64,000 bases of DNA, taken from a virus. Below the pieces are notes generated by a model. It was not told the origin of the DNA. It made no database searches and worked only from the letters and a program-made list of their open reading frames with translations. This document shows, piece after piece, positions 14,793 through 63,599 of this stretch. The stretch lies in the IMG/VR virus record IMGVR_UViG_3300012943_000029, positions 2,176-66,175 of that record; one strand, written 5' to 3'. Position numbers and translations under genes: made by a program. How positions within the stretch are numbered: position 1 is the first letter of the stretch; every line of letters begins with the position of its first letter.

Positions 14793-15333
14793 TTGTGTTT
14801 TCCTTATTTGCTATGAGCGCACCATCAAACCAGAACTGCGGATACTTCAGCAGCTCTTCGAGATAGGTGATGTAAATTCTTTGACCATTGCCTTCAATGA
14901 CAAGCGGACATGGGTGGAACCCAATACCTGTCGTTGCCGCAAAGATCGGCGTGTTGTTCCACTTGAAGATGAGCAGCGGCCGGCGATCAATCTTGACAGC
15001 ATCGACCTCAGCTTCCTTCATCCATGCATAAACGTTAGATGTTCCGGAAACGAGTGAGGTGAATGGATCCTGGGTCTTGTAGAACTTACATTCAATGGAG
15101 TGCTTGAACGTAACGCCAGCCTCCTTCTCGTTGACAGGAACGACGTCGCCAACAAACAGCTTAAGCGCATCTGCACCGAACATCTGCCCAAGGGTCTCAA
15201 AGTTCTTACCGCCAACGCGGGCGCCAGAGCTCTGAGTGCGAATGAACTTCAGTGGCGATAGCGCCTCTGAAAGCTTCTTCGCTACTGTTCCCTCGAAGCC
15301 GTTGCCTTTCGCCTTGCCACCACCAGGTCTCAT
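14686..15333 (-). CDS. Holliday junction resolvase-like PD-(D/E)xK endonuclease
   Basis: KAKGNGFE, RTQSSGA, GDVV and IECKFYK motifs. Confidence 0.8.
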   Translation of the reverse strand: MRPGGGKAKGNGFEGTVAKKLSEALSPLKFIRTQSSGARVGGKNFETLGQMFGADALKLFVGDVVPVNEKEAGVTFKHSIECKFYKTQDPFTSLVSGTSNVYAWMKEAEVDAVKIDRRPLLIFKWNNTPIFAATTGIGFHPCPLVIEGNGQRIYITYLEELLKYPQFWFDGALIANKENTNEPQESQGNSNGSSSGPQEGSSEGALDPLRSGEAG

Positions 15334-15701
15334 GCTGCGGTATCCTTGTCGATGGCACCGATTGAGATGATGTTGTACTCGCTGACCTTGCCGTTCTCGT
15401 CGATCTTGCCGATGCCAGCGGTGCGGAACACGATCTTGTTCTCGGCGAGCAGCTTCTTCAGCTCTTCGCCTTTCTGTGTCTTCAGCACAGTCGCATTGCC
15501 AACGAGGTAGCCATCTTCAATGGAGAGGTTGTTCACAACGTGCGACACCTCTGACAGCTGGACGCTTGCTTCACTGGGCATGCCAAGGGTACCAAGCACC
15601 GCCTTGTTTTCTAGGCGATCGATGGCTGATTGAATTGTGGCTGTTGCGTAGATGCGTCCGTTTTTGTTGGCAGCGTCGAGCTTCAAAATCTTGATCTTCA
15701 T
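15330..15701 (-). CDS. degenerate prohead protease paralog (gp21 fold, catalytic positions substituted)
   Basis: NKNGRIY, LGTLGMP, VSHVV, VLKTQKGEELK and FRTAGIG align with gp21 at 5950..6564; start moved to the ATG at 15701. Confidence 0.8.
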   Translation of the reverse strand: MKIKILKLDAANKNGRIYATATIQSAIDRLENKAVLGTLGMPSEASVQLSEVSHVVNNLSIEDGYLVGNATVLKTQKGEELKKLLAENKIVFRTAGIGKIDENGKVSEYNIISIGAIDKDTAA

Positions 15702-15937
15702 TATCTGTCCTCTGACCAACGCTTATCACAAAGCGTGCAATGGAAATCTACCCAGTAGCAATCAGCTGATGGGTCGTAGTTGCCGGTGTTTGAGCGAGCT
15801 GTCTCATCTAGCCCCTCTTTGGGGTGAGTGCATTCTTTCTGAATGCGCTCAAGCTCGGCTGTTGCCTCAGCGATTATGAGCCTAATCTCATCAGCTCGCT
15901 GCTTAACCGTTTGTCCTAGTCTTGATAGTGGGATCAT
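15701..15937 (-). CDS. small putative Zn-binding protein
   Basis: CTH...CYW...CTLC pattern; coupled to gp46. Confidence 0.65.
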   Translation of the reverse strand: MIPLSRLGQTVKQRADEIRLIIAEATAELERIQKECTHPKEGLDETARSNTGNYDPSADCYWVDFHCTLCDKRWSEDR

Positions 15938-17688
15938 GCTGCTTCCTCTAGTTCTTCGCCGACCACTCGCGAAAAGCCGTTCTGCTTTTGGATACGCAGT
16001 GAGTGGTCAAATCTGCCGACCGCCTCAGGGCGGTGTGAGATGATCCACAGCGCTAGGTCCTCGTCTCGTGACTTCGTCTTGAGCAGCTTGAATACGCTCT
16101 CAACACCTGGGGCATCCAGCGACGCGTCGATCTCATCGATAAACAGGCAGTTGACGCGAGCGTGCAGGTGGTGCAGTACATCGCGGAACGCCAGCGACAG
16201 TGAGAGGTTGACGCGCTTCTTCTCACCGCTGGAAAGGTTGCCGAAGTCGAGCTCGCGGCCCATCTCAGCGACAGTGCAGCTCATGTCATCGTCGAACTTG
16301 ACGATGTGCGGCAGACCCAGTTCCTTGGTGTAATGGATCAACCGATTATTTAGGAATGGAATTGTCCTGTTGATGATCCTGCGGCGGATGAAGGAGTTCT
16401 TGTCGGTGAGCAGCTTGAGAAGGAACTGCTGATGGTCAGCCTCCTTCTTCAGGTGGTCGAGTTCCTCGTAGGAGATCTTCTTGACGGCCTGACCCTTGAG
16501 CTGCTCGTAGGCATCCTCGTGTGGGTTCTCAGCATTCGTCAACTCATCAATGCGTTGCTGTGCTGTAAGGGCAGATGTCTCTGCGGCGACAGCCTCAGCC
16601 AGGTTCTTGAAATGCGCCATCTCTTTCGCTGAGAAGCGCTCACCGTCTGCCTGTGCCCTCTCATTCTCAGCAGCATCAAGGGCAGCCTTCAACTCATCTA
16701 CCTTGATTGTCTTGTTGACGAGCGACTGTTCCTTGGCCGCCAGCTTCTCTTGGGCGCCTGCATACTGCTGCAAGCAGTAAGGGCATTGGTCACTCTTGAG
16801 GTGCGTAAGCTCATCAGAAAGCTTCTTCGCATCAGTCTGTTGTGCGACCCAGTCCTTACGTGTCGCGCTGATCTTTGTGGCAAGAATGGCGAGCTTCTTG
16901 TCCTGCTCGGTAATGAACGTGTGGAGATCCTTCTCAACAGAGAAGTCTATCGTCTCTGACAGCTCGAGAGAGCTCTTTAGGCCGGCGATCTGCGAAACGC
17001 GGTCGCGCTCCCACTTGTCGACGCGGCCCTTGGCAGCTTCAAGCTGCTTCTCAAACACCTGTGCCTGAGCTTCCTGCTCCTTGATGATCGCCTCTTGAAT
17101 GGCGATAGAGCCGTCGGTGCTGCGAATGATCTCCTTCAGCTTCACGGCCTTCTCAGAGAGCAGGGTGATATTGAAGAGCTCCTCGATCTGGTTGCGCTGC
17201 TGCGAAACAGGCATCATAAGGAATGGAACCGAGTTGCCAGAGAACACCACGATCTTTGTGAAGAGGTCGTACGAGATGCCGACGATCTCCTCGATGAGCT
17301 TGTCGTTTTCAGAAACGCTGTCAAGCGTGATGAAGTCGCCGTTCATGGTGATGTAGATGTTGTACTCTTCGCCGCGCTTGCGGTGAACGATGTACTCGTC
17401 CTCACCCTTCATGAAGCAGAGCTTCACCTCCATCATCGTGTTCTTGGTGGCGTTGGTAGAGTTGATCAGCTTCTGCAGGCCAATGTTGTCGAACGGCTTG
17501 TTGTAGATGGCGTAGCAGATGGCATTGATGATCGTCGTCTTGCCGGCACCGTTGTTGGAGCCAGTGTCAAGGTTCTCACCAATGATGAGGGTGGAACCTT
17601 TACCGCTGAGGTCGATGCGCGTGAGGATGTTGCCGAAAGACAGGAAATTTCGGATCTCCATCCACTTGAAGATTAGTGGGGTGCTCAT
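15934..17688 (-). CDS. gp46: recombination endonuclease ATPase subunit, gp46 (Rad50/SbcC-like)
   Basis: Walker A NGAGKTT, CPYC hook, signature LSSGEK, FIDEID, ISH. Confidence 0.97.
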   Translation of the reverse strand: MSTPLIFKWMEIRNFLSFGNILTRIDLSGKGSTLIIGENLDTGSNNGAGKTTIINAICYAIYNKPFDNIGLQKLINSTNATKNTMMEVKLCFMKGEDEYIVHRKRGEEYNIYITMNGDFITLDSVSENDKLIEEIVGISYDLFTKIVVFSGNSVPFLMMPVSQQRNQIEELFNITLLSEKAVKLKEIIRSTDGSIAIQEAIIKEQEAQAQVFEKQLEAAKGRVDKWERDRVSQIAGLKSSLELSETIDFSVEKDLHTFITEQDKKLAILATKISATRKDWVAQQTDAKKLSDELTHLKSDQCPYCLQQYAGAQEKLAAKEQSLVNKTIKVDELKAALDAAENERAQADGERFSAKEMAHFKNLAEAVAAETSALTAQQRIDELTNAENPHEDAYEQLKGQAVKKISYEELDHLKKEADHQQFLLKLLTDKNSFIRRRIINRTIPFLNNRLIHYTKELGLPHIVKFDDDMSCTVAEMGRELDFGNLSSGEKKRVNLSLSLAFRDVLHHLHARVNCLFIDEIDASLDAPGVESVFKLLKTKSRDEDLALWIISHRPEAVGRFDHSLRIQKQNGFSRVVGEELEEAA

Positions 17689-18716
17689 AGTCTCTGGTAG
17701 ATGTCAATCAATCTGGTTGGGTCGATGGTGCTGGTGCCGGTAATACCGCTCTGCAGCATGCCAACGACGGCGTCGTTCAGCGAGCTAAGGTCAAAGTCCT
17801 CAATGCTCTCCTCACCGGCTATGGCATCGCGCCGCTCGTAGAGGTTCTCTTCAAGTGAGAACTCACGAAGGCCGAGACCTGTCGTCATCTCATCGCGCAG
17901 CGTCTGCGCATCTGAGTAGCCGATCTCGGTATCGATGATGCAGCGAACGCGGCACTTCTCTGGAAAGTCTGGCAGCTGGTCGAGGACCGCTGAGAGCTTC
18001 ACCTTGCGGTACTTCGGGCAGTCTTCCCAGTCAATGAAGTCCACCTCGTCGGTGTCTGTGTTGAGCACGCACATGCCGCGCTCATCATCCCATGCATCGC
18101 CGTAGTCCATTGGGAAGCAGTTGCCGATGTACACGACGTTGTCGCAGGCCTGCCGCTTGTGGAAGTGGCCGCTGAAGATATACGTAGGACCAGCAAACAT
18201 CGTGTGCTCTGGCCCATGCTCCATGCGGCGGTCCGAACCGGTCACGACGAAGTTACGGAACTCAAAGTGGCCCATCCAATATGGAAGGTGCGTGTACTGT
18301 ACCAGGTCGGCGTATTCGTCCTTGAACATGAACGGCGCGAGCAACAGCTTCTGATCGATCACGATCGGTTCATTCACGAGAGCAACGTTCTGGAACTCGC
18401 TGAACACCTTCGTCGAGTAGACGCTGCGGTTTTCACGGTGATAGAGGTCGTGGTTGCCGATGATGATGAACACTGGCAGGCCGAGCGAGTTCAGCTCAAT
18501 GAGCGCCTCATGCGCAAAGTTGAGCGTCATCACGTTGACCGAGTTGCGGTTCTCGAACCAGTCGCCCATGAACACCACGCGAGAGATGTCCTTGTCCTTG
18601 CGCACGTTGGCGCAGAACCACCTAACGAAGTCAAGGCAGTCCTGGTTGTGTTGCACGGAATTGTTCTTCTTGCCGAAGTGGATATCCGTGAACATCGCTA
18701 CTTTGTTTAGCGACAC
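17685..18716 (-). CDS. gp47: recombination endonuclease nuclease subunit, gp47 (Mre11/SbcD-like)
   Basis: FTDIHFG, MGDWFE, GNHD, GHFE and SGHFH metallophosphoesterase motifs. Confidence 0.96.
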   Translation of the reverse strand: MSLNKVAMFTDIHFGKKNNSVQHNQDCLDFVRWFCANVRKDKDISRVVFMGDWFENRNSVNVMTLNFAHEALIELNSLGLPVFIIIGNHDLYHRENRSVYSTKVFSEFQNVALVNEPIVIDQKLLLAPFMFKDEYADLVQYTHLPYWMGHFEFRNFVVTGSDRRMEHGPEHTMFAGPTYIFSGHFHKRQACDNVVYIGNCFPMDYGDAWDDERGMCVLNTDTDEVDFIDWEDCPKYRKVKLSAVLDQLPDFPEKCRVRCIIDTEIGYSDAQTLRDEMTTGLGLREFSLEENLYERRDAIAGEESIEDFDLSSLNDAVVGMLQSGITGTSTIDPTRLIDIYQRL

Positions 18717-18719
18717 GGC

Positions 18720-19559
18720 TTACTTCCTCTTGGCTTGTTTCTTCGCCTTTTTCTTGGCGACCTTCTTGACTGGTTTCTTGACCGCCTTCTTCTTTTTCGT
18801 TGGCTTCTCAACGACAGCAGGTTCAGTCGGTTTTTGTTTGATGGTCAACTGCTTAGTGATCGGATCGTACTCATACTCACTAGGCTTGTAGACCTTCACT
18901 GGACCCGGGTTCATGTCATTGTAGCGGCTCAGGCGCTTCTCGCCTGGCTTACCAGGGTCCATCATCGAGAACTGCTGCTGACCAAACGAAGGCCGCTTCG
19001 TTGGAGCTTGAATACCCCGCGCCAGCCCACCGTTGTGGTTGTCAATCTGCTGCGTGGCATCGGCAAGGGCGGTGCTGTTGGTCTCTCCCTTTACCTCAAG
19101 GTGATCTTCGCTCTTGATCTCCACGTCATCCGACATGCTCGTCGTAGTGTCTTCACTTTGACGCCCGCTGTTCTCAAAGTTGTAGGACGGATTGAAGCCC
19201 GCGTCTACAAGCAGCGTGTCTCGGATCTTGCGGTGGTTTTTCTCTTCCGCCATGTACTGGAGGAATGAGTGGTAGATACCCGTGGTGTAGTAAGCAAATG
19301 GATTGCTTGACTTTTCCGGGTTGAACTTCAGCGCGTTGTTGCACAAGTTCGTGACGGCCGCAGCCACCATATCTTCTCGATATGAGTAGCCGACGAAGTT
19401 GCCCTTGTGTGAGTACCGCTCAGCAATCATCCAGATCATCCGGATGAGCTTTTCGGTTACCTTACCGAGGGCTTTGGCCTCTATTACAGCGGGGAGAAGA
19501 TCAGCATTTCGAACGTAGTGGCCTTCAGTAGAAGTACTTTTGGCTCTTTTGATTTTCAA
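18720..19559 (-). CDS. gp55: late-transcription sigma factor, gp55-like
   Basis: HYVRNADL, YSYREDM, KFNPEKSSNPFAYYT. Confidence 0.93.
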   Translation of the reverse strand: MKIKRAKSTSTEGHYVRNADLLPAVIEAKALGKVTEKLIRMIWMIAERYSHKGNFVGYSYREDMVAAAVTNLCNNALKFNPEKSSNPFAYYTTGIYHSFLQYMAEEKNHRKIRDTLLVDAGFNPSYNFENSGRQSEDTTTSMSDDVEIKSEDHLEVKGETNSTALADATQQIDNHNGGLARGIQAPTKRPSFGQQQFSMMDPGKPGEKRLSRYNDMNPGPVKVYKPSEYEYDPITKQLTIKQKPTEPAVVEKPTKKKKAVKKPVKKVAKKKAKKQAKRK

Positions 19560-19597
19560 ACTATGTCTCCAGGACGTGAACGCCAGGAGATTGATAC

Positions 19598-19625
19598 ATT
19601 ATACATCATCTCCATCCCTTTAAAA
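19598..19625 (-). promoter_or_regulatory. sigma70-like promoter for the gp55-gp47-gp46 operon
   Basis: Perfect TATAAT at 19598-19603; TTTTAA 16 nt upstream. Confidence 0.5.
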
Positions 19626-19653
19626 CTGCTGCCTGGTGAAGGCATCCTGATTG

Positions 19654-19660
19654 ATAAATA
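19654..19660 (+). promoter_or_regulatory. late promoter ATAAATA
   Basis: ~30 nt upstream of the ATG at 19692, at the start of the plus-strand late block. Confidence 0.7.
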
Positions 19661-19691
19661 CCTCGCCCACTCAATCAGCGGCAGGACCACA

Positions 19692-20378
19692 ATGAGCGTC
19701 ATCGTAGAAAAGCAAGACGAACCAGAAAAGGAGATCTATCCTGTAGGTTCAAAGAAGGTCGCTGTCGTCATTGGGCGCTTCAACCCTCCGACGAAAGGTC
19801 ATTACGCGGTGATTGACCAGGTGAAGAAGTTCATTCGCAAGAACCCGAGCCTTGGGCTCGAGGCAGCTCCAGCAGTGGTGATCATTGGTGGGAGCAAGTC
19901 GGATGATGACAAGAAGAGAAATCCTCTTTCGGCTCATGAACGCCAGGTATTTATGAAGGCCTCTGGGCGCACAAATGGCGTCAACTTTTTCGTAGCGCCA
20001 AACGCATTTGCTGCCTTCGTGCTGCTCCGAAAAGAGGGTCTGGAGCCAATAGCAGTCGCGGCAGGTTCCGATAGGGTTCAAGATTACATGCGCATTCTCA
20101 ATGGCTCCTTCAAGAATGGTGAGGAGCCGATCAAGCACTACAAGATACACCTGCCTCGCGACGAGAGCGCCATCGACGGTGAAAAGAGCTCGAGCGACAG
20201 CGTGCTAAATGACATGAAGGGTGGCGACATAGAGACTGATCTCGTATCAGGTTCACTCGCGCGCCGCGCGGTCGAGCTCGGCTACCTGCCAGAGTTCACC
20301 AAGATTGTCGGCCTCGAGGACAAACCCGAGCTCGCTAAGAAGCTGTTCGACAAGATCGCAGCGTCGATCAAGGAATAA
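19692..20378 (+). CDS. cytidylyltransferase-like (HIGH-family) nucleotidyltransferase
   Basis: GRFNPPTKGH, KRNPLS, AGSDR and SGSLARR; start moved to the ATG at 19692, downstream of the promoter. Confidence 0.85.
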   Translation: MSVIVEKQDEPEKEIYPVGSKKVAVVIGRFNPPTKGHYAVIDQVKKFIRKNPSLGLEAAPAVVIIGGSKSDDDKKRNPLSAHERQVFMKASGRTNGVNFFVAPNAFAAFVLLRKEGLEPIAVAAGSDRVQDYMRILNGSFKNGEEPIKHYKIHLPRDESAIDGEKSSSDSVLNDMKGGDIETDLVSGSLARRAVELGYLPEFTKIVGLEDKPELAKKLFDKIAASIKE

Positions 20379-20381
20379 GCA

Positions 20382-21506
20382 GTGGCAAGTCCTGGTTCAC
20401 CAATAGTTCCGAAGAAAGGCACCGTACCAGCAGGATCGCCTGACACGGCGGTCGACGTGCAGAACAGCCAGACGACCGTTGATTACTCAACGCCGACCGG
20501 CATAACGCACCATGCTGAGCTCGGTGACAAGATGCTTGAGCGCGGCGACGCCGCCAACTTCTCTGGAATGTCAAGCGATGTTGGGCTCAAGAACGTAAAT
20601 GGTAACATTGTCGCCACTCAAGTCGGCTCAAACCAAGCGCTAGGCGTTGTTGGTGACGTCGAGAGCGGCGACATTCCGGCTTCAGCCGTCTATCAACCGC
20701 ACGACGACAACACAGCCGCCTACAAGGTCAGGCTAACGTCGCAGGTGGACGGACAGACGATCATGTTCGAGGTGATGCCAGAGATCGGTGAAAGCCGTAG
20801 CGCAGACTACGATGATTTCACCCCTATCCAGCATCCAGGTTCCATCCTCAAGTACAAGGGAACATCGACGCGCGAGTGGAGCGTTACTGTCCGCCTCGCA
20901 TCAAGAACAGCGTCTGAGGCAACTGAAAATCTGAGGAAGATCAACCTACTGCGCTCATGGGTGATGCCGTACTACGGTCAAGGAACAGCCGACGACCCTG
21001 AGACATCACAGTTCCTCGGCGCGCCACCGCCAGTGCTAACGCTTAGCGCGTATGGCAAACGAATGATCGGCCCAACCAAGGTGGTGCTCACGAGCTACCA
21101 GTGGAACTGGCCGAATGACATTGACTACATTCAAACTACTACCTCACCACCTGTGCCATTCCCCGTTCTCGTGCAGCTTCAGCTGACCCTACGCGAGGCG
21201 TTCTCACCACGTGAGTACAGCGCGTTCAACTTGAAGGCGTTCAGGCGCGGAGAGATGGAGGCGGCCTTCACCTCCTCGTCAAGCAGCCCTCAGAACAGCA
21301 AGCCGGCGAATGGTAAGACAACCGGCGACGCAACAAAGATAAACACCGCTGAGGCCACGAACGCAACGCAGGATGCTAAGAACGCCGCCAGCACGGTGGC
21401 TAACACGCGAGCTGCTGGAAACGTAACAGCACAAGGTGCTGCTCTTGTTCAGCAGGGATCAGCGAAACTATCTAGCATCAACCAGAACCCTGGCGGAGGT
21501 AGCTAA
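20382..21506 (+). CDS. baseplate tube-initiator / tube-like protein
   Basis: ESRSADY...KYKGTSTREWSVTVRL and PPPVLTLSAYG...VLTSYQWNWP tube-fold pattern, upstream of gp53. Confidence 0.6.
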   Translation: MASPGSPIVPKKGTVPAGSPDTAVDVQNSQTTVDYSTPTGITHHAELGDKMLERGDAANFSGMSSDVGLKNVNGNIVATQVGSNQALGVVGDVESGDIPASAVYQPHDDNTAAYKVRLTSQVDGQTIMFEVMPEIGESRSADYDDFTPIQHPGSILKYKGTSTREWSVTVRLASRTASEATENLRKINLLRSWVMPYYGQGTADDPETSQFLGAPPPVLTLSAYGKRMIGPTKVVLTSYQWNWPNDIDYIQTTTSPPVPFPVLVQLQLTLREAFSPREYSAFNLKAFRRGEMEAAFTSSSSSPQNSKPANGKTTGDATKINTAEATNATQDAKNAASTVANTRAAGNVTAQGAALVQQGSAKLSSINQNPGGGS

Positions 21507-21916
21507 TGGCCGGCACCGTTAAGACGACGAAACCAACGTCGAACAACAACAAGAACAGCCTCTACAACCGCTACTCACGCTACGTTGCTGGTGGTTCAAC
21601 TGAACACGCCAATGACATGCTTGAGTGGTGGGAGCGCGCCAACTTCCAGCGCGATGACAGCGACATCGTCTACGCCGTGGAAAACTTCTACGCCCAGCGC
21701 CTCGACCTCATCGCGTCGGTGTTCTACAATGAGCCGCGCTACTGGTGGTTCCTGGCACAATACAACAGCATCCTCGATCCGTTTACCGAGATCACCCCAG
21801 GTCGCATCCTCCTTATTCCTACCGCTGACCGTCTATCGCTCCTGCTCGGAAGCGCCAAGGGCGGTGTCGCCTCCACGCGTGAGGCCGTTACTGTCATCTC
21901 ACCGATTATCACATGA
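21506..21916 (+). CDS. gp53: baseplate wedge protein, gp53-like
   Basis: QRLDLIASVFYNEPRYWWFLAQYNSILDP. Confidence 0.75.
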   Translation: MAGTVKTTKPTSNNNKNSLYNRYSRYVAGGSTEHANDMLEWWERANFQRDDSDIVYAVENFYAQRLDLIASVFYNEPRYWWFLAQYNSILDPFTEITPGRILLIPTADRLSLLLGSAKGGVASTREAVTVISPIIT

Positions 21917-24138
21917 CAACCATCGATCCAGCACAGATCAAGAACAACTACGCAAACCCGCTAGACGCCTACCGCTCCTACTCATACCAGTTCATCCTCA
22001 CCCTGTCGTCAACAACGCAGGCGTTTGCAGAGATGATCGGCAACTACAAGGGTGGGCGTGGTGGGCCGGTCAGCAGCGCCTCACCGCTGCTGGCGGCTGT
22101 GCGAAATGCGAAAAAGCCAGGTGATGCATTCACCGTGAACGGCCAAACAGCGTACCTTCTTGTTGACACCCGCCGCTTCTCACAGTACGGCATCACTAAC
22201 CTTGAGATGGAACACGTCTACGGTGCCGGCTCACAGAACAACCCATCAGTTCCAGCCAACACCACGAGCATGGAGCTGATCGACACGACAGGCATGTCAT
22301 TCTTTAATATGCTCATGGAAACGTTCCGTGAGAAGCTGCAGACAACCCGCGCCTCAGCGTTCTTCCTGCTGACCATCCTTTTCACCGGTCACAAGGATGA
22401 CGGTACAACTGAGACCATCTCCACGTGCTTCATTCCGCTGATACTGCTCACCATGGAGTTCACCCTGGACCACCGGGGCACCACCTTCCAGATCCAGTTC
22501 ATGGAGACCGAGGGTGGTCCACAGCGTGGTGCCGCGATGGAGGTCTTGAACTACATGGGCGGCGTGCGCTCGATTACCTCAAAAGGAACGTCATCAACCA
22601 TCGGCGGCATGCTGTCATCGCTTGAGAAGCAGCTCAACATCAAGTCACTTGAGTTCTACAACAAGTACACAAACACCGCTCAGAGCATGAATGGTGGGAC
22701 GGCAACAAAGTCTGGAAAGCTTGTGCAGTACATGATCACGGTCAACAAGGACTGGGAACAGTTTCCCGTGTCGCTTGCTGGTAGGTCGAAGTACCGTGAG
22801 CAGACGTTCACCGCGTTCAGCATGGATCCTGTTAGCGCGGGTGGTGCGTTCACGGCATTTGACCAATCACCGTTCGACGGCAGCGGCGATGGCCTCTACG
22901 CGCAGATGGCGTTCTCAGAGACAACGCTCATCACCGACGCCATCAAAACCGTTCTCGAGGCATCTCCTGATTTTCTCGCGCTGTCAAGCGAAGAGAAGGT
23001 GAAGGCTGGAACTGCCTCAACCAACAAGATCCTGATCAACATCACGTGCGATGACGACACCTACGTTGTGCACTTTGACGTGCTGCCGTACTTTCTACCG
23101 AAGGTGAACACCGACAAGAAGGATGAGCCAGCAAACACCGTCAGCATTCCAGCCGGTGGCAAATCGACCATCGGCGGTGCAAACGAGATCAAGAACCTCA
23201 TCACCTACGATTACATCTTTACTGGCAAGAACAGCCACATCAAGAACCTAGATATCAAGTATCTTCCAGAAAGCGCAATCGCCCTTGATACAAACCTGCA
23301 GCTAGGGCAGGCGCGGCTTGCCTATAACGCAAACATTGGTCAGACGACAGCGAAGGTGAAGGAGGCGTCTGAAAGCACGGCAACAAAGTCGGCCAGCTAC
23401 GCCCCAGACATTCGTGGCAGCGATCCAATCTTCTTCTCATATCGCTCGCAGGATCAGAAGAACAACATTGCCACCCACAAGAATGAGCAGATGCCAAAGG
23501 ACGAGGCCATTGACGCGCTGCGCAAGAAGCAGGAATACACCAACACAATGGCGTATGTGCACTTCATCAGCTCTCTTGAGCTGACGGCGACTGTGCGTGG
23601 CAACCCAAACATCATCAAGAAGTTTGCGGATCGCAACGAGCGCGGCGGTGTCCCACCTCACAGCTCAATCATCGACGCCAAGGGCATTAGCAACCTCAAT
23701 GACCTGATCAACACCAGCAACAACGCTGAGGCGGTCTACAACCAGAAGCTTCAACAGGGTGTGTCAACGGCGAAAGGTCTTTACTACTCGAAGTACGTAG
23801 CACCTCGCATCAAGGCATACACCGACGCTCACGTGCCAGGCTCTGATCCTCTGCTTAGCGGTCCAGATATCTCAGTGAACCCCGTCTTCTGTAAGCTCAA
23901 CATCTTTGCGCCGAACGTTGACAGCATGGGCGACACAAAGCGCAACGAGGACGGCTCGCAGCAGTCGCTGTTCACCGACGAGTTCTTCTTCAACGGCCCA
24001 TACATGGTTCTGTACATCAAGACGACGTTCACGAACGGCGAGTTTGAGCACGTCATCACAATGATCCCATACATTGTATCGGACACGCTGACAAAATCGA
24101 ACGGCGCGCCTAAGCCTACCGGAACGACAGTAAAATGA
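21913..24138 (+). CDS. baseplate hub protein (gp27/late-control-D-like position)
   Basis: NPLDAYRSYSYQFIL N-terminus, LTATVRGNP, GPYMVLYIKTTFTNGEFEH C-terminus; lies between gp53 and gp5. Confidence 0.6.
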   Translation: MTTIDPAQIKNNYANPLDAYRSYSYQFILTLSSTTQAFAEMIGNYKGGRGGPVSSASPLLAAVRNAKKPGDAFTVNGQTAYLLVDTRRFSQYGITNLEMEHVYGAGSQNNPSVPANTTSMELIDTTGMSFFNMLMETFREKLQTTRASAFFLLTILFTGHKDDGTTETISTCFIPLILLTMEFTLDHRGTTFQIQFMETEGGPQRGAAMEVLNYMGGVRSITSKGTSSTIGGMLSSLEKQLNIKSLEFYNKYTNTAQSMNGGTATKSGKLVQYMITVNKDWEQFPVSLAGRSKYREQTFTAFSMDPVSAGGAFTAFDQSPFDGSGDGLYAQMAFSETTLITDAIKTVLEASPDFLALSSEEKVKAGTASTNKILINITCDDDTYVVHFDVLPYFLPKVNTDKKDEPANTVSIPAGGKSTIGGANEIKNLITYDYIFTGKNSHIKNLDIKYLPESAIALDTNLQLGQARLAYNANIGQTTAKVKEASESTATKSASYAPDIRGSDPIFFSYRSQDQKNNIATHKNEQMPKDEAIDALRKKQEYTNTMAYVHFISSLELTATVRGNPNIIKKFADRNERGGVPPHSSIIDAKGISNLNDLINTSNNAEAVYNQKLQQGVSTAKGLYYSKYVAPRIKAYTDAHVPGSDPLLSGPDISVNPVFCKLNIFAPNVDSMGDTKRNEDGSQQSLFTDEFFFNGPYMVLYIKTTFTNGEFEHVITMIPYIVSDTLTKSNGAPKPTGTTVK

Positions 24139-53261: not shown

Positions 53262-53262
53262 G

Positions 53263-54779: not shown

Positions 54780-54819
54780 GATGCCTCTATGATAATTTTG
54801 ATGCGTACGGGTGTTGGCG

Positions 54820-55047: not shown

Positions 55048-55060
55048 TTCGCTTTACCCT

Positions 55061-55735: not shown

Positions 55736-55738
55736 TTT

Positions 55739-56410: not shown

Positions 56411-56432
56411 CTGTATTATTTCTTATGTGGTG

Positions 56433-59400
56433 TCAGGTGTTTACTTTGAGCCTATCCTGCACGCGCGCCTTAATATGCGCCATGCGATTTAACGCCTCAA
56501 CCTCTGGAATTTTTGGGTTGATGTGTTCGGTGTTCTTGAGCAGCTCTACTATCTCACTTTCAGTCCAACCTTCTTTCGAAAGTTTTTCAATTTCGGATTT
56601 TGTAAGCTTAGCCTCATCGTCCGTGATATCACCGCCATTGATTTCTGCCATATTAACGAGGCGTTCCCAAGCACCTTCACTCAGCATGGATCCAATCAAT
56701 GTGAACTTTATCGCTTCAGCTGGTGCGGATGCGGCGGCGTTCACTGCTCCAGGCGCAAGCTTAGCGGCGTTCGTGAGAGCATCACGCGCCATCTTCTGCT
56801 TGGAAACAACTGAGCTGTTCTTGGCAGCGATCAGACCTGGTGAGTTGCGAGCCTGAAGTGTCTTAGCCTGATATGCGAACGAGCGGTTTGCCATGAGGTC
56901 AAAGCCCATCGTGATGAGCATGTCGCTGATGGCCTGAAGTGTTGGGTTCGGGAATGAAAGCTCGCCATCTTCAGCAAGCACCTGCTTGTGCAGTGAGACG
57001 CTCTCTTCTGTCTTCTCAACCTTCTTCTTTTTCTTCTTCTTTGGCTTATCGTCGCCACCATCATTGTCATCGCCGGCGACTTCCTCACCACCTTCTACCT
57101 CATCGGTATCAGCATCAGCATCAGCATCGGCTTCTTCGTCAGAGGTTTCATCACCGTCAGTCTCTTCGTCAGACGCCTCTTCCTCACCACCTTCCTCGTC
57201 AGAGGTGGTAGCATCGGCATCTTCGTCTTCATCCTCGTCGCCGCCCTTCTTTTTCTTGATCTGGCCGAAGTCGTCGCGCTCCTCGCCGTCATCAATCTCT
57301 TCGTCGTCGCCATCCTCGCCAGTTCCCTCACCATCAGGCGAGGCCTCACCGTCAGATGAAATGGCTGCGTCTAGTGGGATAGCGTTCTGAGCTTCTTCAC
57401 TGTCATTGTCATGCACGGTGAAGTCGAGACCGTCTTGCGTAGGGGTGTCGCCAGGCTGGCCGTCTACTGGGGTTCCCTCTGGGCCATTGAGGTCAGCCGG
57501 CCATTCGACGTCGACGATGTCAAACTTCTGAGCCAGCGTGTTGACGGCTGCCTCGATGTCATCTTCTTGGCCGAGGAGCTCACTCATGGCCTTCTCAAAT
57601 GCTTCTGCCTGCGAGGCGTTCACATAGACCTTTACAACCTTGCCAGTATCAGTCTCAAGACCGTAGGCAACGGTATCTACTTGATCATTGATCTCATGCG
57701 CCTTGTCGAGGTACTTGCTGACGTCCATCTGGTTGATGTTGTCGCCAACGTTCACATTGTTACGAAGCTGTTTGAACTCTACGTCGCCCTTGGCCTGCGC
57801 GGTATCATCCACGTCAGTGGCAAACTTCATGTCACCGACATGGGCCCAATCCTCATTCACTGACTTGATCAGTGAGTACCCGCCGCTTGGGGCTGGAAAC
57901 TTCGGTGGCTTGACGAAGTTGCGCTTACGCTTGATGATCTCCTTACCGCCCTGAAATAGGCGCTTTTCTGGAGGAGCTACATCACCAGCTGATGTGGTGG
58001 CGGAGCCGCCACCATCATCCTCGCTGACTGACTTGATTAGTACGAATGCCTCTTTCACTTCAGTATCTCCTTCGTCGAAGAGCGAGTTGATCGTTCTTCC
58101 ATAAAGCGCCAGCAACAGCTGGGCAGCGGTGCGGCTTGATAGAACCTTTGAGATGATCTCGTTGATCTCTTTCTTTGTTTCTGCAAACGCAGTAAGCGTG
58201 CGTGACATTACCTCTGGGGTGATGCCGACTTCCTTACCGGTCTTGAGCTTGAGCTTGTACTCGCCAGCTTCTTTCTTGAACTGACCAAGGATGTTGTCGA
58301 TCTCCTGGAGAGATCCTTTCAGGATCGACGCGATCTTTGTGCGGGCTGCTGGCACGCTCTTAATATCGAGGTGGTTGGCCAACGCGAGGGCAGTGGCCGA
58401 TACGTCAGACTTCTTGTAATGCTGTACGTAGCGGCGTGCCTGCGATGCGACGGCTAGTTCCTTTGCACCGATCAGCTCAGCAATGCGGATCTTGGCATCG
58501 CCAAACACACCACCTCTTGCCTCAAGCGGTGCGGTGCTGTCAGCAGTACGAACCATGCTTGAAATACCGCTGCGCACGCCGGCATTGAATGAGTTGATGG
58601 CAGTGAACACATCGCGGTCGACGATCTTGGTTTGGTTGCCAGTGATAGGGTCGCGAACGACAACACCCTCAACACCGATGTCCTCAGACGGGTGAAGCTC
58701 AGGGTCCTGAAGCACAGGCTTGATCTTGCGAACGAACCTATCGAGCAGCAGCTCTTTGATTGGCTGCTTGTACTGCTTCAAGATGATCTCATTGACGCGG
58801 TCACGCTCGTTCTTTGCTTCAGCGCGCTCGCCCTTTGGAACTGACGTGAGCGACATTTCCGCCACATCACCATTCGTCTTGTCAGAGAACGCTTTGTTTG
58901 ACTGCTCAAGGTAGCTCTTCAGCTTAGCGAGCTGCGCAAGAGCTTCTTTTGTATTGATGGTCGATGCCGAGATCGGCTTGACCTTGGTAAACTTCCAGTG
59001 AAGATCTTCGTCATGCATCTTGACTGAGTTGCCATCCTCTGACGAGGCGATCGCCGACTTTACGGTGATCTCTTTACCATCGAGGGCATCAGCCAGGTTT
59101 TGAACACGATCTTCTGGCGTACCATGAACACCACGAAGGATGACGATGTAGTTCTTTCCCTCGGCTCCATACACAACAGTATTTGGCTGGCGGCCGAAGA
59201 GAACCTCTATCTCAACCGCATCGCCCTGCTTGAGGTACTTGCGAATGGTAGGTTCGACCTTCTCTAGGGCGAGGTGCGCAGCTCTAAAGCCATTGTAGGC
59301 AGCAAGCGGCTTGTAGTCGCTGACATTGTAGAAGCGACTTGAGTGAGAGGACTTGCCCTCACGTGATGTGTACAGACCCTTGTCGTCTAGGCCGAACCAG

Positions 59401-59537
59401 AGGTTCGCCCCATCAAGCTTCTCAGTGATGATCTTGTCGTTGAGGGTCTCGACTGTGCGGATGAACTCCCTAACTGGGAGGTCCTCGATGTGCGAGATGC
59501 CTTCTGCCAAGATGATTGTCTTAAGAAGTTTGGTCAT
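56433..59537 (-). CDS. 1034-aa protein with N-terminal ATP-dependent ligase (covalent nucleotidyltransferase) fold, probably virion-internal
   Basis: TEKLDGAN (KxDG), EIEVLF, EGVVVRD and TKIVDR; long acidic linker; ILAE N-terminus; exact TATAAATA promoter. Confidence 0.7.
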   Translation of the reverse strand: MTKLLKTIILAEGISHIEDLPVREFIRTVETLNDKIITEKLDGANLWFGLDDKGLYTSREGKSSHSSRFYNVSDYKPLAAYNGFRAAHLALEKVEPTIRKYLKQGDAVEIEVLFGRQPNTVVYGAEGKNYIVILRGVHGTPEDRVQNLADALDGKEITVKSAIASSEDGNSVKMHDEDLHWKFTKVKPISASTINTKEALAQLAKLKSYLEQSNKAFSDKTNGDVAEMSLTSVPKGERAEAKNERDRVNEIILKQYKQPIKELLLDRFVRKIKPVLQDPELHPSEDIGVEGVVVRDPITGNQTKIVDRDVFTAINSFNAGVRSGISSMVRTADSTAPLEARGGVFGDAKIRIAELIGAKELAVASQARRYVQHYKKSDVSATALALANHLDIKSVPAARTKIASILKGSLQEIDNILGQFKKEAGEYKLKLKTGKEVGITPEVMSRTLTAFAETKKEINEIISKVLSSRTAAQLLLALYGRTINSLFDEGDTEVKEAFVLIKSVSEDDGGGSATTSAGDVAPPEKRLFQGGKEIIKRKRNFVKPPKFPAPSGGYSLIKSVNEDWAHVGDMKFATDVDDTAQAKGDVEFKQLRNNVNVGDNINQMDVSKYLDKAHEINDQVDTVAYGLETDTGKVVKVYVNASQAEAFEKAMSELLGQEDDIEAAVNTLAQKFDIVDVEWPADLNGPEGTPVDGQPGDTPTQDGLDFTVHDNDSEEAQNAIPLDAAISSDGEASPDGEGTGEDGDDEEIDDGEERDDFGQIKKKKGGDEDEDEDADATTSDEEGGEEEASDEETDGDETSDEEADADADADTDEVEGGEEVAGDDNDGGDDKPKKKKKKKVEKTEESVSLHKQVLAEDGELSFPNPTLQAISDMLITMGFDLMANRSFAYQAKTLQARNSPGLIAAKNSSVVSKQKMARDALTNAAKLAPGAVNAAASAPAEAIKFTLIGSMLSEGAWERLVNMAEINGGDITDDEAKLTKSEIEKLSKEGWTESEIVELLKNTEHINPKIPEVEALNRMAHIKARVQDRLKVNT

Positions 59538-59562
59538 GTTTCCGGTGCCCGTTTCAACAGAG

Positions 59563-59570
59563 TATTTATA
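59563..59570 (-). promoter_or_regulatory. late promoter TATAAATA (exact T4 consensus)
   Basis: 25 nt upstream of the ATG at 59537. Confidence 0.8.
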
Positions 59571-59595
59571 GCCTCAGGTCGCAGGGCAGGCACAG

Positions 59596-59623
59596 ATGGA
59601 GGGGCCCTTTCGAGCCCCTCCAT
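59596..59623. terminator. GC-rich hairpin, probable terminator of the primase-helicase operon
   Basis: ATGGAGGGGC/GCCCCTCCAT 10-bp stem; U tract weak. Confidence 0.55.
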
Positions 59624-59644
59624 ACGCTCAACAGGCGCTGGTGA

Positions 59645-59902
59645 TTAGCCTGCAGCCGCCTCAGCAGCTGGAGCTGCCGGTGCTGCCTTCTCGGCGAGCT
59701 CCTTCGCTACAGTCTGTGAGAGCTCGGCGTCGAGGGCGCGCAGGGCGGCCTCAGTCTTGGCGATTGCCAGGCGCTCGGCGGCCAGCTCATTGCGCCATTC
59801 CGTGTGGATGGCAACGAGGCGCTGTACGACCTCGCTGAACGTGCCGACTGGGTATTCGTTGCCATCTACAGTGATGGTCTTTGGGGCTTCTTGCTGCTGC
59901 AT
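59645..59902 (-). CDS. hypothetical coiled-coil protein
   Basis: 85 aa, SD AGGAG, ITVDGNEY N-terminus. Confidence 0.7.
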   Translation of the reverse strand: MQQQEAPKTITVDGNEYPVGTFSEVVQRLVAIHTEWRNELAAERLAIAKTEAALRALDAELSQTVAKELAEKAAPAAPAAEAAAG

Positions 59903-59918
59903 TATCGTCTCCTGTGGA

Positions 59919-61265
59919 TTACGTGTTCATCAAGTTGAGAACGCTATTGTTCTCTTTCGGTTTTTCAAACACTGTGCCTTCAGTGCTGAGAGTTGGTGTC
60001 GTCCTTCTCTTGAGGGACAAACCACCAGCCTTCGCCTTAACTGATTTGATCAGCAAGGAGATTGGATCCCAGCCCAAGAAGATGCGCTTGCCGGTTCCGG
60101 TGCCGTTTCTAACCTTGAGGATCTCAAAGTTGATCTCACCGGAGGCTCGCATTAGATCGTCCTGCTTGACGGCCACCGTGTAGTCGGATGTATTTATCTT
60201 GGAGATACCACCCTGAATATGCCGCTGGCTAAGCTTCTCTGCGTCAATGGCATCACGACCAAGCTGCGAGGCTGAGATCATGATGCAGTCATAGTCGAAA
60301 CCCAGGCTGCGGATTTCCTCAGTCACGAACTTGTCCTTGATGAACAGGTTGTCAGCTGAGATCTGGTGCGTGGTGCCCATGATGTCAACGTAGTCGACGA
60401 CGATGAAGTCTGGACGGAAGCCATGCTGCTGCTCAAGCTGCGTGATGTATGCACGAATGTGGTTGATGTTGGTGCGGTTCTCAGGCATGCGTTTGATAAA
60501 GAACTGACCCATTGTGCCGCTGGCGTTGTTGATCGACGCAACGACCTTCTCGAGTTCCTTGAGCAGGTTTTCCTGAGCGATGTGCGAGATCATGCTGTCA
60601 AGACGCTTCGACACAACGCCGTCGGCCATTTCAAGCGATATGTAGACGCCGTTCAACCCCTTCGAAAGAAGGTTGCGGGCGAGGTTCAACATCGTCATTG
60701 ACTTACCGCCACCCGAGTTGGCAGCAAAGAGGATCAGCTCTTGGCGACCAAGCCCGCCGCCGATGGCGTCGTCAAGCTCAGGCCAGCCAGTTGAGATCTT
60801 CGCCTCAGTAATGAGCGTCTTGCGAAGGCGCTCCTCTGGATCCTTGAAGTAGTCAATGCCGCTATCCTTCTGTAGGCTAACGGCGGTGGCGGCCTTGAAC
60901 AGCTCAAGGATCTTACCGAACTCTCCCTTCTGCAGGAGCTCGGCGCCCTGCTGAAGTGCCTCAACAGCTGCGCGGTCTTGGCAGAATTTTTCCACCTCAG
61001 TGGCAACGTATGCGACGTCGGCGCGCTCAATCTTGCCGCTGTCCTCGAGCACCGAGCCTGTCTCGGCTCGGATTGTCTGGATCTTTGGCACGTCCTTGTA
61101 CGTACTGAAGTACTCGGCCATGAACTTGACCGTCTTCTTCAGTGATGGGTCAAAGTAGGATGGCTTGAGAATTCCAGCGGTCAGCGCCATGAGATCGCGG
61201 TTGCCGGCGATAAGGCTAAGGACTAGGCGTTGCTTTTCCAGCTCCATTAGAAGTTCTTCCTCCAC
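59919..61265 (-). CDS. gp41: replicative DnaB-like helicase, gp41-like
   Basis: Walker A ANSGGGKS, YISLEM, IVVDYVD, ISASQLGR. Confidence 0.96.
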   Translation of the reverse strand: MEEELLMELEKQRLVLSLIAGNRDLMALTAGILKPSYFDPSLKKTVKFMAEYFSTYKDVPKIQTIRAETGSVLEDSGKIERADVAYVATEVEKFCQDRAAVEALQQGAELLQKGEFGKILELFKAATAVSLQKDSGIDYFKDPEERLRKTLITEAKISTGWPELDDAIGGGLGRQELILFAANSGGGKSMTMLNLARNLLSKGLNGVYISLEMADGVVSKRLDSMISHIAQENLLKELEKVVASINNASGTMGQFFIKRMPENRTNINHIRAYITQLEQQHGFRPDFIVVDYVDIMGTTHQISADNLFIKDKFVTEEIRSLGFDYDCIMISASQLGRDAIDAEKLSQRHIQGGISKINTSDYTVAVKQDDLMRASGEINFEILKVRNGTGTGKRIFLGWDPISLLIKSVKAKAGGLSLKRRTTPTLSTEGTVFEKPKENNSVLNLMNT

Positions 61266-61504
61266 GTAGCATGCTTCTCCACCTCTTCGCGTGTGGTGCT
61301 GGTTCTAACGCATGCATCGTCAAAGATGCTGTGAAGCACGTTCATTGTAAATCCAGAGGCATTACCTCCCCACACGCACCAGTCCAGTACCTCTAGCACC
61401 TGAAGCGGTGTAGGCTCATCGTCCCACTTCTCAATGAGTGGCTTCATGCTTGCGTCAAGCTGTCCATCCGGCGCTTCAAGCAAAAGCTGCTTCAGCTCAC
61501 TCAT
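61247..61504 (-). CDS. hypothetical protein
   Basis: 85 aa, coupled between primase and helicase. Confidence 0.65.
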   Translation of the reverse strand: MSELKQLLLEAPDGQLDASMKPLIEKWDDEPTPLQVLEVLDWCVWGGNASGFTMNVLHSIFDDACVRTSTTREEVEKHATWRKNF

Positions 61505-62526
61505 TTTCCAGCTCCACAGTGAATGTTGATAGCGATCTTTGCATAGTCGGCATCTTTAGGGATTGACTTGAAAAGCTCACGCGTTGTGTAGCAGAGGCCG
61601 AAGCGACGAACGCTTTCATTCAGGTCCTCTGTCCCATCTGGTGAGAAAGCGATCTCCCACCCATGTTCGATGACAGTCTCAGCGAGATGCTTCCCGTTGC
61701 TGTCTTTATCTATCACGAAAACAATCCTGCGGTTTGACTTAGACAGCAGGTCGATCTTAGCGTCGTTGAGGCGGCTGCCGAGAAGGGCCACACCATCAAC
61801 CATCATGGCATCAAACACACCCTCACAGACGAAGAGCGGTAGGTCAGAATAGCGAGTGAGCTCATCCATGTTGAACATCACTGCCTCGCGCCCGACAGGT
61901 GCGTTGTCGTAGCGGAGCTTCTCTTTAGGATCCGTGTGGCGCCCCTGCCAATAGATGAGGTTGCCGTTGCGGTAGTATGGAATGATGACGCGATTTATAA
62001 AGCGCTGCTCAAGTGAGAAGAACATCTGGTACTTTGAGATGTCAATCTTGCGGTCGAGCAGGTAGTCAACGAGCTTCTCTTGGTAGTCGAGGAACTCAGT
62101 GTGGCCTAGTGGAAAGCTTTTGGCTGGCAGCTTAATCGTCGGTGTTGTGGTGTTCACCTTCGTGAGCTTGCTTAGCGTGATCTTGTCGCTCTCACCCTTC
62201 TTGAAGAAGAGGGCGGTGTTGACTATTGGGCGAATGTCATCGTCATCAATGTCTAGCGCTCGAAGGATCGTCTTGAACTTGTTCGACATCTTACCGCTGA
62301 ACTCGGTGTAGCGGCTTGCAGTCGAGCAATTCCAGCAATTGTAAATTACCTGATCGTCTTCAAACTTGAAGCCACCTCGCACCTTGTAGTCGTTGCAAAG
62401 CGGACACTTGCCAACCCGCCAGCCTGTGCCGCTGGATTGCCAAGGAACTCGGGCCTCAATGAGGGATTGAAGGGTGGTTTTCTCGAACACGTTCTTGTTG
62501 TAGTCAGGCAAAAGAAAGGCCTGCAT
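61501..62526 (-). CDS. gp61: DNA primase, gp61-like
   Basis: Zn finger CPLC...CWNC, RVIIPYY, YWQGR, TOPRIM CEGVFD and DKD. Confidence 0.93.
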   Translation of the reverse strand: MQAFLLPDYNKNVFEKTTLQSLIEARVPWQSSGTGWRVGKCPLCNDYKVRGGFKFEDDQVIYNCWNCSTASRYTEFSGKMSNKFKTILRALDIDDDDIRPIVNTALFFKKGESDKITLSKLTKVNTTTPTIKLPAKSFPLGHTEFLDYQEKLVDYLLDRKIDISKYQMFFSLEQRFINRVIIPYYRNGNLIYWQGRHTDPKEKLRYDNAPVGREAVMFNMDELTRYSDLPLFVCEGVFDAMMVDGVALLGSRLNDAKIDLLSKSNRRIVFVIDKDSNGKHLAETVIEHGWEIAFSPDGTEDLNESVRRFGLCYTTRELFKSIPKDADYAKIAINIHCGAGK

Positions 62527-62536
62527 CAGCAGGCCT

Positions 62537-62565
62537 ATTCTAAGTCAGTAGCTGTCAGCTTAAAA
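62537..62565 (-). promoter_or_regulatory. sigma70-like promoter TTTTAA-17-TAGAAT
   Basis: -10 box 11 nt upstream of the primase ATG. Confidence 0.45.
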
Positions 62566-62571
62566 CTTGGT

Positions 62572-63198
62572 TCAGTGAGCGATCGTCTTTACGAGGACAG
62601 CCTGCGCGTAATCATTGGTCTCAGCGTCTTGACCCTCGGCACCGCCAGGTCCCTTGTTGTACGCCATCGCCAGTTGCGCCGCAGATGAGAAGCCGTACGT
62701 GTCGCGCAGGATCAGAAGGTACTTGCTGGCTATCGTCATGTTGAAGACGTCGTCCTCGATCAGCTTGGCTATCAGCTCATCGTCGGTGCGAGTGTGGAAC
62801 CTAAACTTTGTCCACAGTGCTGGCCATTTCTTCATGACGTCCCATGTGGCGCTCAGCTTGATCTGTGAAACACCGTAGTAGCGCTTCGTCGGTTTGAGCC
62901 CATACTCTTGACCAACCACGTTGTAGCGCTTGAGCGTTCCAGCATGGCTCTCTTGAAGGATGATGCCTTGAAGAAGCTGTGGGTGTTCGAGACCATCCTT
63001 GTTGGCGATGTCATACGCCATGCCAAGGAGCTGTGCCTGGGACGGGGTCGGGTCCTTCGGGTACTCGAAGGAGAACATCTGTGCTTCAGTGATGCTCTCT
63101 TTTGGTGGTGCGCTTTGCCCTTTAGCAGCGCTTGTGAAAACTCCACCAATGTACGCAACAATCGATAGTGCTAGCAACGCAAAGTGGCTTAGCTTCAT
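62572..63198 (-). CDS. lytic transglycosylase (SLT/lysozyme-like) with N-terminal signal peptide
   Basis: ILQES (catalytic Glu), YGVSQIK, IASKYL, AYNKGPG; hydrophobic N-terminus. Confidence 0.82.
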   Translation of the reverse strand: MKLSHFALLALSIVAYIGGVFTSAAKGQSAPPKESITEAQMFSFEYPKDPTPSQAQLLGMAYDIANKDGLEHPQLLQGIILQESHAGTLKRYNVVGQEYGLKPTKRYYGVSQIKLSATWDVMKKWPALWTKFRFHTRTDDELIAKLIEDDVFNMTIASKYLLILRDTYGFSSAAQLAMAYNKGPGGAEGQDAETNDYAQAVLVKTIAH

Positions 63199-63259
63199 TG
63201 GGTTTCTCCTTTCCTTGTGGGTTAGGTTGACTTACTGATGAGCTCCCAGCTCGTTGATT

Positions 63260-63288
63260 ATTCTATCAATCTGTCGCAGAAAAGTAAA
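63260..63288 (-). promoter_or_regulatory. sigma70-like promoter TTTACT-17-TAGAAT, extended -10
   Basis: Exact 17-nt spacer; TG upstream of the -10. Confidence 0.65.
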
Positions 63289-63323
63289 CGGGATCCCACT
63301 TAACATAATGTGGGATCCCGTTT
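63286..63323. terminator. perfect 14-bp inverted repeat; probable terminator or operator
   Basis: AAACGGGATCCCAC-TTAACATAAT-GTGGGATCCCGTTT, followed on the minus strand by ACTTTT. Confidence 0.65.
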
Positions 63324-63338
63324 GATCAGCGTGGCTGC

Positions 63339-63599
63339 TTATGGTGCGCCGAAGTATGGACCTTTGATGACTGTAATCTCAACTGCAGGCTTTCCATCTC
63401 TCATTGCGTTCACGAGAAGGTCTGTGTTTTCAGGAAAGAACCTCTTGAGAGAAGTTTTAACCTCGTTGATGTAGTCACGCACCCGGCCTGGCGGCATCTT
63501 GCCAATTTCAACATTGGCAATGATCTTATCGCCTGGACTAATCTCGAGCTTGGCAATGGAGCCGATGGTGACCGGCTCTCTTACCTCACCCTCGATCAT
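63339..63599 (-). CDS. 86-aa protein resembling the portal clip domain
   Basis: VEIGKMPPGRVRDYINEVK aligns without gaps to portal LDVGNMPPVRVKQYIEGVR. Confidence 0.7.
   Translation of the reverse strand: MIEGEVREPVTIGSIAKLEISPGDKIIANVEIGKMPPGRVRDYINEVKTSLKRFFPENTDLLVNAMRDGKPAVEITVIKGPYFGAP

Follow-up and report, generated by a model that had tools for sequence, protein, structure and literature searches.

What do small phage genes do that resemble isolated pieces of the phage's own head proteins? This question is raised by two open reading frames (ORFs), ORF1 and ORF2, in a 64,000-nucleotide stretch of viral DNA (positions 2,176 to 66,175 of IMG/VR record IMGVR_UViG_3300012943_000029; hereafter the window). 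In the first-pass annotation of the window, the two were tentatively read as parts of one decoy system, in which inactive miniature copies of head-assembly proteins would be loaded into the cell ahead of the proteins that trigger anti-phage defences. Our analysis indicates that ORF1 encodes a truncated, catalytically dead homologue of the prohead protease and ORF2 a free-standing copy of the tip of the portal clip. In our favoured reading, to which we assign a probability of roughly 40%, they are independent accessory look-alikes of one interaction surface each and act as competitive binders, most likely of host proteins.

The window is included in a 156,921-bp IMG/VR contig (G000; completeness about 44%). 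It comes from an uncultured jumbo phage of soil that has a T4-type core. The stretch is present in just one soil-metagenome DNA run, and no RNA run was listed for it. The closest cultured relative is Ralstonia phage RsoM2USA (47.6% identity between portal proteins), and a complete 358-kb relative (G001) was available for comparison. The occurrence of the two mini-genes was scored over 13 related genomes; readings of promoters and expression for this phage are based on sequence motifs alone. Both presumed parents are encoded on the minus strand of the window. The active-type, gp21-like prohead protease of 204 amino acids (aa) (5950..6564; Pfam S77, E = 9e-26; phrog_207, E = 5e-56) carries GELNHP and GVSSRG motifs, and the T4-type portal has 553 aa (6678..8339; Pfam Portal_T4, E = 1e-83).

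ORF1 (15330..15701, minus strand) encodes 123 aa. It aligned with the window's gp21-like protease over 117 aa at 23% identity (BLASTP, E = 8e-12) and matched phrog_207, ‘head maturation protease’ (E = 9e-14), as well as Pfam Peptidase_S77 (PF03420; E = 2.4e-4, 21.1 bits, under the 27-bit gathering cut-off). Judged by these matches, ORF1 is a true homologue of the phage's own gp21-type protease. A word-based homologue search with ORF1 returned ORF1 itself as the sole match, and a single-sequence locus search gave no matches. Relative to the protease, ORF1 is short by about 30 N-terminal and 55 C-terminal residues, and does not have the full length of about 200–225 aa with a C-terminal tail. In the alignment, the T4 catalytic triad His85/Ser140/Asp165 is replaced by Met, Arg and Gly. 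This triad is present in all 20 full-length proteases aligned and missing from all eight short orthologues in the clade, in which ‘FRxxG’ replaces ‘SSRG’ and the His is gone. The motifs N-x-N-G-R-x-Y and VSH, common to active proteases, are retained in ORF1. The T4 core protein gp68 was ruled out as the counterpart of ORF1, being without similarity to gp21 or ORF1.

In a maximum-likelihood tree, the short proteases cluster together (support 93/91) and all full-length proteases, including the T4 and cyanophage types, form a clade that excludes them (98/94); the short-protease branches are about ten times longer than the full-length ones, so that long-branch effects have to be kept in mind. Intact orthologues of 123–144 aa were found in G001 (52% identity), in L039 and in five further genomes, and ORF1-like genes occur in seven of the 13 related genomes (G000, G001, G002, G003, G006, G008 and G010). 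With intact orthologues so distributed, ORF1 is a member of an old, fast-evolving clade and not a recent duplicate of the resident protease. Similar short copies without the His are encoded by Yersinia phage fHe-Yen9-04 (g109, 144 aa), among PhoH, Nudix, Sir2 and RNA-ligase genes, and by one 595-kb uncultured phage. A 595-kb uncultured phage (LR756511.1; L018:3872-4765) also encodes a 297-aa protease-like protein in which the catalytic His is Met, as in ORF1, and which has a Tat-signal-looking N-terminus (N-R-R-C-F-I) and a long C-terminal extension.

ORF1 belongs to a tightly overlapping operon, in which it is preceded (15701..19559, minus strand) by genes for a gp55-like late sigma factor (18720-19559), gp47 (SbcD-like), gp46 (SbcC-like) and a 78-aa product; the ORF1 stop codon overlaps a PDDEXK endonuclease gene (14686..15333, minus strand; Pfam PDDEXK_15, E = 2e-18). 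The location of ORF1 in the operon following gp46 is kept in three genomes. No ATAAATA was found on the operon strand within the gp55-gp47-gp46-ORF1 operon, where there is just a CTAAATA inside gp46 at 16347. For ORF1, the location in a recombination operon and the lack of a nearby TAAATA late promoter were thus described correctly in the first-pass annotation.

ORF2 (63339..63599, minus strand) encodes 86 aa, of which residues 21-54 copy the strand-tip-helix of the portal clip (G-x-M-P-P plus helix). According to hhalign and hidden Markov model (HMM) comparisons, the copied segment lies at 7473..7574 (minus strand) of the parent portal gene and corresponds to portal residues 256-289, the clip tip. 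Comparison of the single pair by BLASTP gave a weak match (9 of 24 residues identical, E = 1e-4), and ORF2 alone had no match in Pfam. An HMM built from 22 ORF2 relatives, with the window copy left out, matched the window portal among 480 ORFs (E = 3e-7), and hhalign of the ORF2 family against 14 portals gave a probability of 96.7% (E = 4.5e-10; 34 columns aligned). In each of 12 related genomes, the ORF2-family profile recovered the portal clip, and its top PDB matches were T4 gp20 chains at residues 281-310 (E = 8e-4). Weak contact with Pfam Portal_T4 was seen in 12 of the 24 family members.

The ORF2 family has 24 representatives in 1.8 billion proteins. They are 66–204 aa long, some with the unit two- or threefold, and the tip G, M and P, which correspond to T4 gp20 G290, M292 and P293, are nearly invariant. 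A tblastn search with ORF2 against 50,697 cultured-phage records gave no match. In an AF2 model of ORF2 (pLDDT 79), a strand (25-31), the tip in an exposed loop and a helix (37-52) are packed on two more strands, which do not align to the remainder of the clip. Fold searches with this model (Foldseek against PDB, and a wide search) returned generic small alpha/beta matches (Z ≤5) and no portal, which is uninformative for a likeness of 34 residues. Co-folding of the G001 terminase with the G001 orthologue of ORF2, both entered as alignments, gave a score of 0.00 and carries no weight either way. ORF2 has the clip-tip motif (strand, G-N-M-P, helix) and not the whole wing-stem-clip-crown architecture of Portal_T4 (PF07230; about 500 aa, dodecamer). 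Its alignments therefore describe a stand-alone clip-tip copy rather than a shortened whole portal. Of the earlier view that both genes are shortened head-protein copies, the protease half holds and the portal half does so in part, with just about 34 of 553 portal residues alike. The description of both as inactive look-alikes stands: both are conserved, and the parent functions that have been lost are catalysis and the prohead-targeting tail in ORF1, and the ring-forming wing, stem and crown in ORF2.

Genomic setting bears on when ORF2 may be expressed. At the far end of the window, the minus-strand gene order is helicase, primase, SLT-like gene and ORF2. In the first-pass annotation ORF2 was assigned to a replication operon without a nearby late promoter. 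ORF2 instead appears to belong to a cassette of its own. It is preceded by a gene for a 164-aa protein, the 3′ part of which is in the window (63596..64000, minus strand) and the stop of which overlaps the ORF2 start (ATGA). This gene starts beyond the window end, at window-equivalent position 64090 (gene at G000 65771-66265), and a GATAAATA motif lies 19 nucleotides before its start (window-equivalent 64110-64117, about 110 nucleotides past the window end). The same motif is kept ahead of the same gene pair in G001, L012, G003 and G011. Directly 3′ of the ORF2 stop is a 14-bp hairpin with a U-rich tract (63286..63323, minus strand; −25.1 kcal/mol, z −5.1, matched by none of 200 shuffles), which is kept in G001 with compensatory changes and is likely the terminator of a late cassette. 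A sigma-70-like promoter, TTTACT-17-TAGAAT with TG (63260..63288, minus strand), is predicted to serve the SLT-like, primase and helicase genes downstream of ORF2, and G001 has TATAAT at the equivalent position.

The window contains 13 copies of the motif ATAAATA where 1.1 would be expected, mostly 20–30 nucleotides ahead of structural genes; examples are at 6614, 11372, 19654, 25554, 29769, 42854, 45663, 48678 and 59563. The first of these belongs to a TATAAATA motif (6614-6621) just upstream of the parent protease gene. ATAAATA is likely a T4-type late promoter, which would fit the gp55-like sigma factor. ORF2 thus seems to adjoin the replication genes and yet to be transcriptionally separate, late, and translationally coupled to the 164-aa gene. 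Because its own cassette consists of a late-promoter motif, the 164-aa gene, ORF2 and the hairpin, early pre-loading of the cell with ORF2 is unlikely, and that part of the earlier proposal is unsupported. An exact TATAAATA (59563-59570) also stands in front of a 1034-aa gene of no known family (56433-59537, minus strand), which looks late amid the replication genes.

The 164-aa gene is a core gene, present in 12 of 12 related genomes at 50–86% identity with TAAATA upstream in all 12. Its product had no PHROG or Pfam match except a weak one to DUF7141, an Atlas search with it was empty, and its AF2 model was unusable (pLDDT 39). Over these 12 genomes, the slot after the 164-aa gene holds an ORF2-like gene in G000, G001, G003 and G011 (also in contig L012) and an unrelated small ORF in G005 and G006, and is empty in G002, G004, G007, G008, G010 and RsoM2USA. 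This slot is a hot spot of small accessory genes.

Are the two mini-genes parts of one system? They are 48 kb apart, and ORF1 and ORF2 lie 9 kb and 55 kb, respectively, away from their own parents. ORF2-like genes were found in four of the 13 related genomes; three genomes have both genes, four an ORF1-like gene alone, one an ORF2-like gene alone and five neither. ORF1 and ORF2 are not co-inherited and are two independent accessory genes, and the idea of a single coordinated system has to be given up. Both evolve fast. Between G000 and G001, ORF1 is 52% and ORF2 56% identical, against a genome median of 69% and 85–96% for the parents (protease 90%, portal 85%); at 52–56% protein identity, synonymous sites are saturated. 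Orthologues of both remain intact in genomes in which TerL is just about 50% identical. These comparisons indicate real genes under selection, fast-evolving and patchy in distribution.

How might such proteins act? ORF1 and ORF2 may work through non-productive competitive binding, and the most likely targets would be host proteins that sense the parent proteins or serve as their cleavage substrates. For ORF2 these could be SpbK- or Avs4-type sensors that dock on the clip, and for ORF1 the protease-cleaved loops of CBASS-type sensors. Each mini-protein would then be a decoy or shield produced alongside the trigger and, in the case of ORF2, not beforehand. The earlier suggestion that defence systems sense the parent proteins fits the literature, with the copied pieces coinciding with published sites (PMC12847820, PMC12991175). 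A decoy role stays plausible because the genes are accessory and evolve fast and because the copied pieces match sites known to trigger immunity. Several points weigh against it. Binding to host proteins is inferred from sequence only. The roughly 34 portal-like residues in ORF2 are too few to imitate the stem-clip-wing surface read by Avs4, and a dead protease is unable to imitate protease activity and could just shield substrates. The match to trigger sites may partly reflect ascertainment bias, because the best-conserved stretch of a parent is the one most easily detected in a diverged copy. Finally, the sole direct biochemical precedent for a free clip tip, the T4 gp20 peptide 288-311, is binding to the phage's own terminase (PMC4493910).

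This precedent favours a different, tentative possibility, that the mini-proteins are phage-internal regulators. ORF2 would occupy the clip-docking surface of the large terminase or of the neck protein and time or buffer packaging, and ORF1 would restrain proteolysis outside proheads by binding, in the cytoplasm, gp21 or its LxE-type substrates. The stretch copied in ORF2 corresponds to residues 281-310 of T4 gp20, four of which contact gp17, the near-invariant G, M and P of the family fall on G290, M292 and P293, and the free peptide 288-311 inhibits packaging (PMC4493910). That ORF2 is probably late and translationally coupled to a core late gene, and that ORF1 retains two motifs of active proteases, would also suit regulators. 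However, of the 13 genomes, ORF2 is missing from nine and ORF1 from six, complete ones included, although these close relatives have the same portal, the same terminase and the same protease. Neither mini-gene is therefore needed for assembly. Both genes evolve much faster than the partners that they would have to fit, and inhibition of its own packaging by a phage requires an extra explanation. Host sensors and the phage's own terminase and protease are about equally defensible as targets; we rank the sensors slightly higher because complete close relatives manage without the mini-genes.

Other explanations appear weaker. Inhibition of packaging by the free T4 clip peptide (PMC4493910), together with the accessory, patchy and fast-evolving character of the genes, would suit weapons against competing phages or satellites, in which the fragments have a dominant-negative effect on head assembly or packaging in co-infecting relatives and the phage's own proteins are tolerant. 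Such specificity was not seen in any result, and the clip tip is so conserved in the clade that self-poisoning would be hard to avoid, making this use improbable. T4 gp21 is itself a component of the prohead core, and ORF2 is probably a late gene, both of which would agree with a plain structural role, in which the mini-proteins are minor parts of the prohead or virion (additional scaffold or core subunits, for instance) and are related to the protease and the portal by descent alone. But ORF1 is without the C-terminal tail presumed to bring the protease into the prohead (PMC5694885) and lies in a recombination operon without ATAAATA, and both genes are absent from close relatives, so we give this role little credence as well. 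It is very improbable that the two are decaying, functionless leftovers of partial duplications. They are small, diverged and patchy, and T4 alt.-1/alt.-2 offer an annotated case of an old duplication. Yet their reading frames are intact over deep divergence, their start and stop codons overlap neighbouring genes, and the promoter motif and hairpin are conserved. Subfamily motifs are also kept, with FRxxG in eight of eight short proteases and G-x-M-P-P plus helix in the 24 ORF2 relatives.

An all-against-all search of ORFs, which the first-pass annotation had proposed, uncovered two further partial copies of head proteins in the lineage. One, outside the window, is a capsid mimic of 93 aa (G000:C1:79189-79470, window-equivalent about 77014-77295; L173:390-671; minus strand). 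It has a Tat-like N-terminus (S-R-R-A-F-F and a hydrophobic run) and then a stretch of 44 residues with 57% identity to residues 64-107 of the major head protein (E = 3e-16), whose gene lies at 862-2136 (minus strand) of the window. A 68%-identical orthologue is present in G001, and the mimic matches phrog_138 and the PHROG of small ‘major head protein’ entries. The copied stretch is the most conserved in the capsid and aligns to T4 gp23 95-131. The Gol region of T4 we take to be approximately gp23 residues 93-122. Gol, the trigger of Lit, is the most conserved part of gp23 (PMC3014915). The other copy is a second clip mini-gene of 63 aa in G001 (G001:C1:55170-55361, L153; minus strand); over 57 aa it shares 35% identity with residues 259-315 of the G001 portal, and the 157-kb G000 fragment has no counterpart of it. 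One could imagine a shifting repertoire of ‘self-epitope’ mini-genes in the lineage (for the clip tip, the dead protease and the Gol-corresponding capsid stretch), each blunting the sensor of that piece, which would be clip-docking TIR or STAND sensors, protease-activated CBASS or Lit-like proteases. We consider this wider scheme unlikely as it stands.

The slot right after a 413-aa RNA-ligase gene (phrog_968) is occupied by the capsid mimic in G000 and G001 (L173, G000:78800-81000, for the former) and by a dead mini-protease in G003 (L171, G003:C1:210950-214318), and the dead protease of fHe-Yen9-04 is likewise near an RNA-ligase gene. In G001, a 100-aa ORF beside the large terminase gene (G001:C1:74920-75222, minus strand) shares 31% identity over 94 aa with the C-terminal portion of a 313-aa protein encoded 3 kb away (G001:C1:78394-79335, minus strand), and may be another partial copy. 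The terminase match is about 2.3 kb rather than 1.55 kb long in many relatives (L077, L079, L081-L083, L085, L087, L088, L092 and others), and the intein-type Pfam domain PF14890 was found in two related proteins, which suggests that some members of the clade carry inteins in the large terminase.

Head proteins (portal, terminase, capsid and protease) are the main protein patterns sensed by bacterial immunity. If phages reply with free look-alikes of the sensed surfaces, these would constitute a new class of counter-defence, and self-mimicry would be a general strategy, so far undescribed, that is easy to find by searching small ORFs against the phage's own head proteins. Should their targets be the terminase or protease of the phage itself, the mimics would be natural inhibitors of packaging and maturation, useful for studies of the motor. 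Under either reading the proteins are short and testable.

Known systems offer several points of comparison. SpbK docks on the portal clip helix and EcAvs4 contacts the stem, clip and wing (PMC12847820), and cleavage by a prohead protease switches on CBASS CD-NTases (PMC12991175). These triggers are the same parent proteins as those of ORF1 and ORF2 and, for the portal, exactly the copied sub-domain. In the papers that we found, there is no description of a phage-encoded self-mimic that blocks SpbK, EcAvs4 or CBASS sensors. The position of ORF2 near helicase and primase genes resembles that of T4 gp40, a chaperone of head vertex assembly whose gene lies between uvsX and helicase gene 41. The two share no sequence similarity (hhalign probability 0.3%), so gp40 was rejected as a relative and the likeness is positional alone. 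In T4, the annotation of the small ORFs alt.-1/alt.-2 traces them to an old duplication, a partial one, at the start of gene alt, which encodes a head-internal protein; unlike ORF1 and ORF2, they adjoin their parent gene.

For ORF1, the nearest parallel is in phiKZ-like phages, which encode truncated ‘cryptic’ protease paralogues, presumably inactive, such as SPN3US gp117, 201phi2-1 gp206 (145 aa) and PhiPA3 gp143 (136 aa) (Ali et al. 2017, PMC5694885). In the same work, the C-terminal tail is thought to bring the protease into the prohead. By description ORF1 is of the gp117 type, being short (about 125–145 aa), without the C-terminal part and the catalytic His, and encoded beside a full-length protease in a jumbo phage. 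It differs in belonging to a T4-core lineage near RsoM2USA and to S77 rather than S80, and in the loss of the whole triad, of which gp117 retains Ser and Asp. The ‘cryptic protease’ observation is thereby extended from phiKZ-like phages to a second jumbo lineage. For ORF2, the model is the clip domain of T4 gp20 (residues 279-358), which docks gp17. In this domain N291, M292, R295 and K296 touch gp17, M292I stops the initiation of packaging, and gp17 is also bound by the peptide 288-311 when free (Sun et al. 2015, PMC4493910, citing Lin, Rao and Black 1999). Residues 21-54 of ORF2 resemble gp20 281-310 in the strand, the exposed G-N-M-P tip and helix alpha6. Unlike the gp20 peptide, ORF2 would be a natural stand-alone protein of 86 aa, predicted to be folded, that presents this tip without wing, stem or crown.

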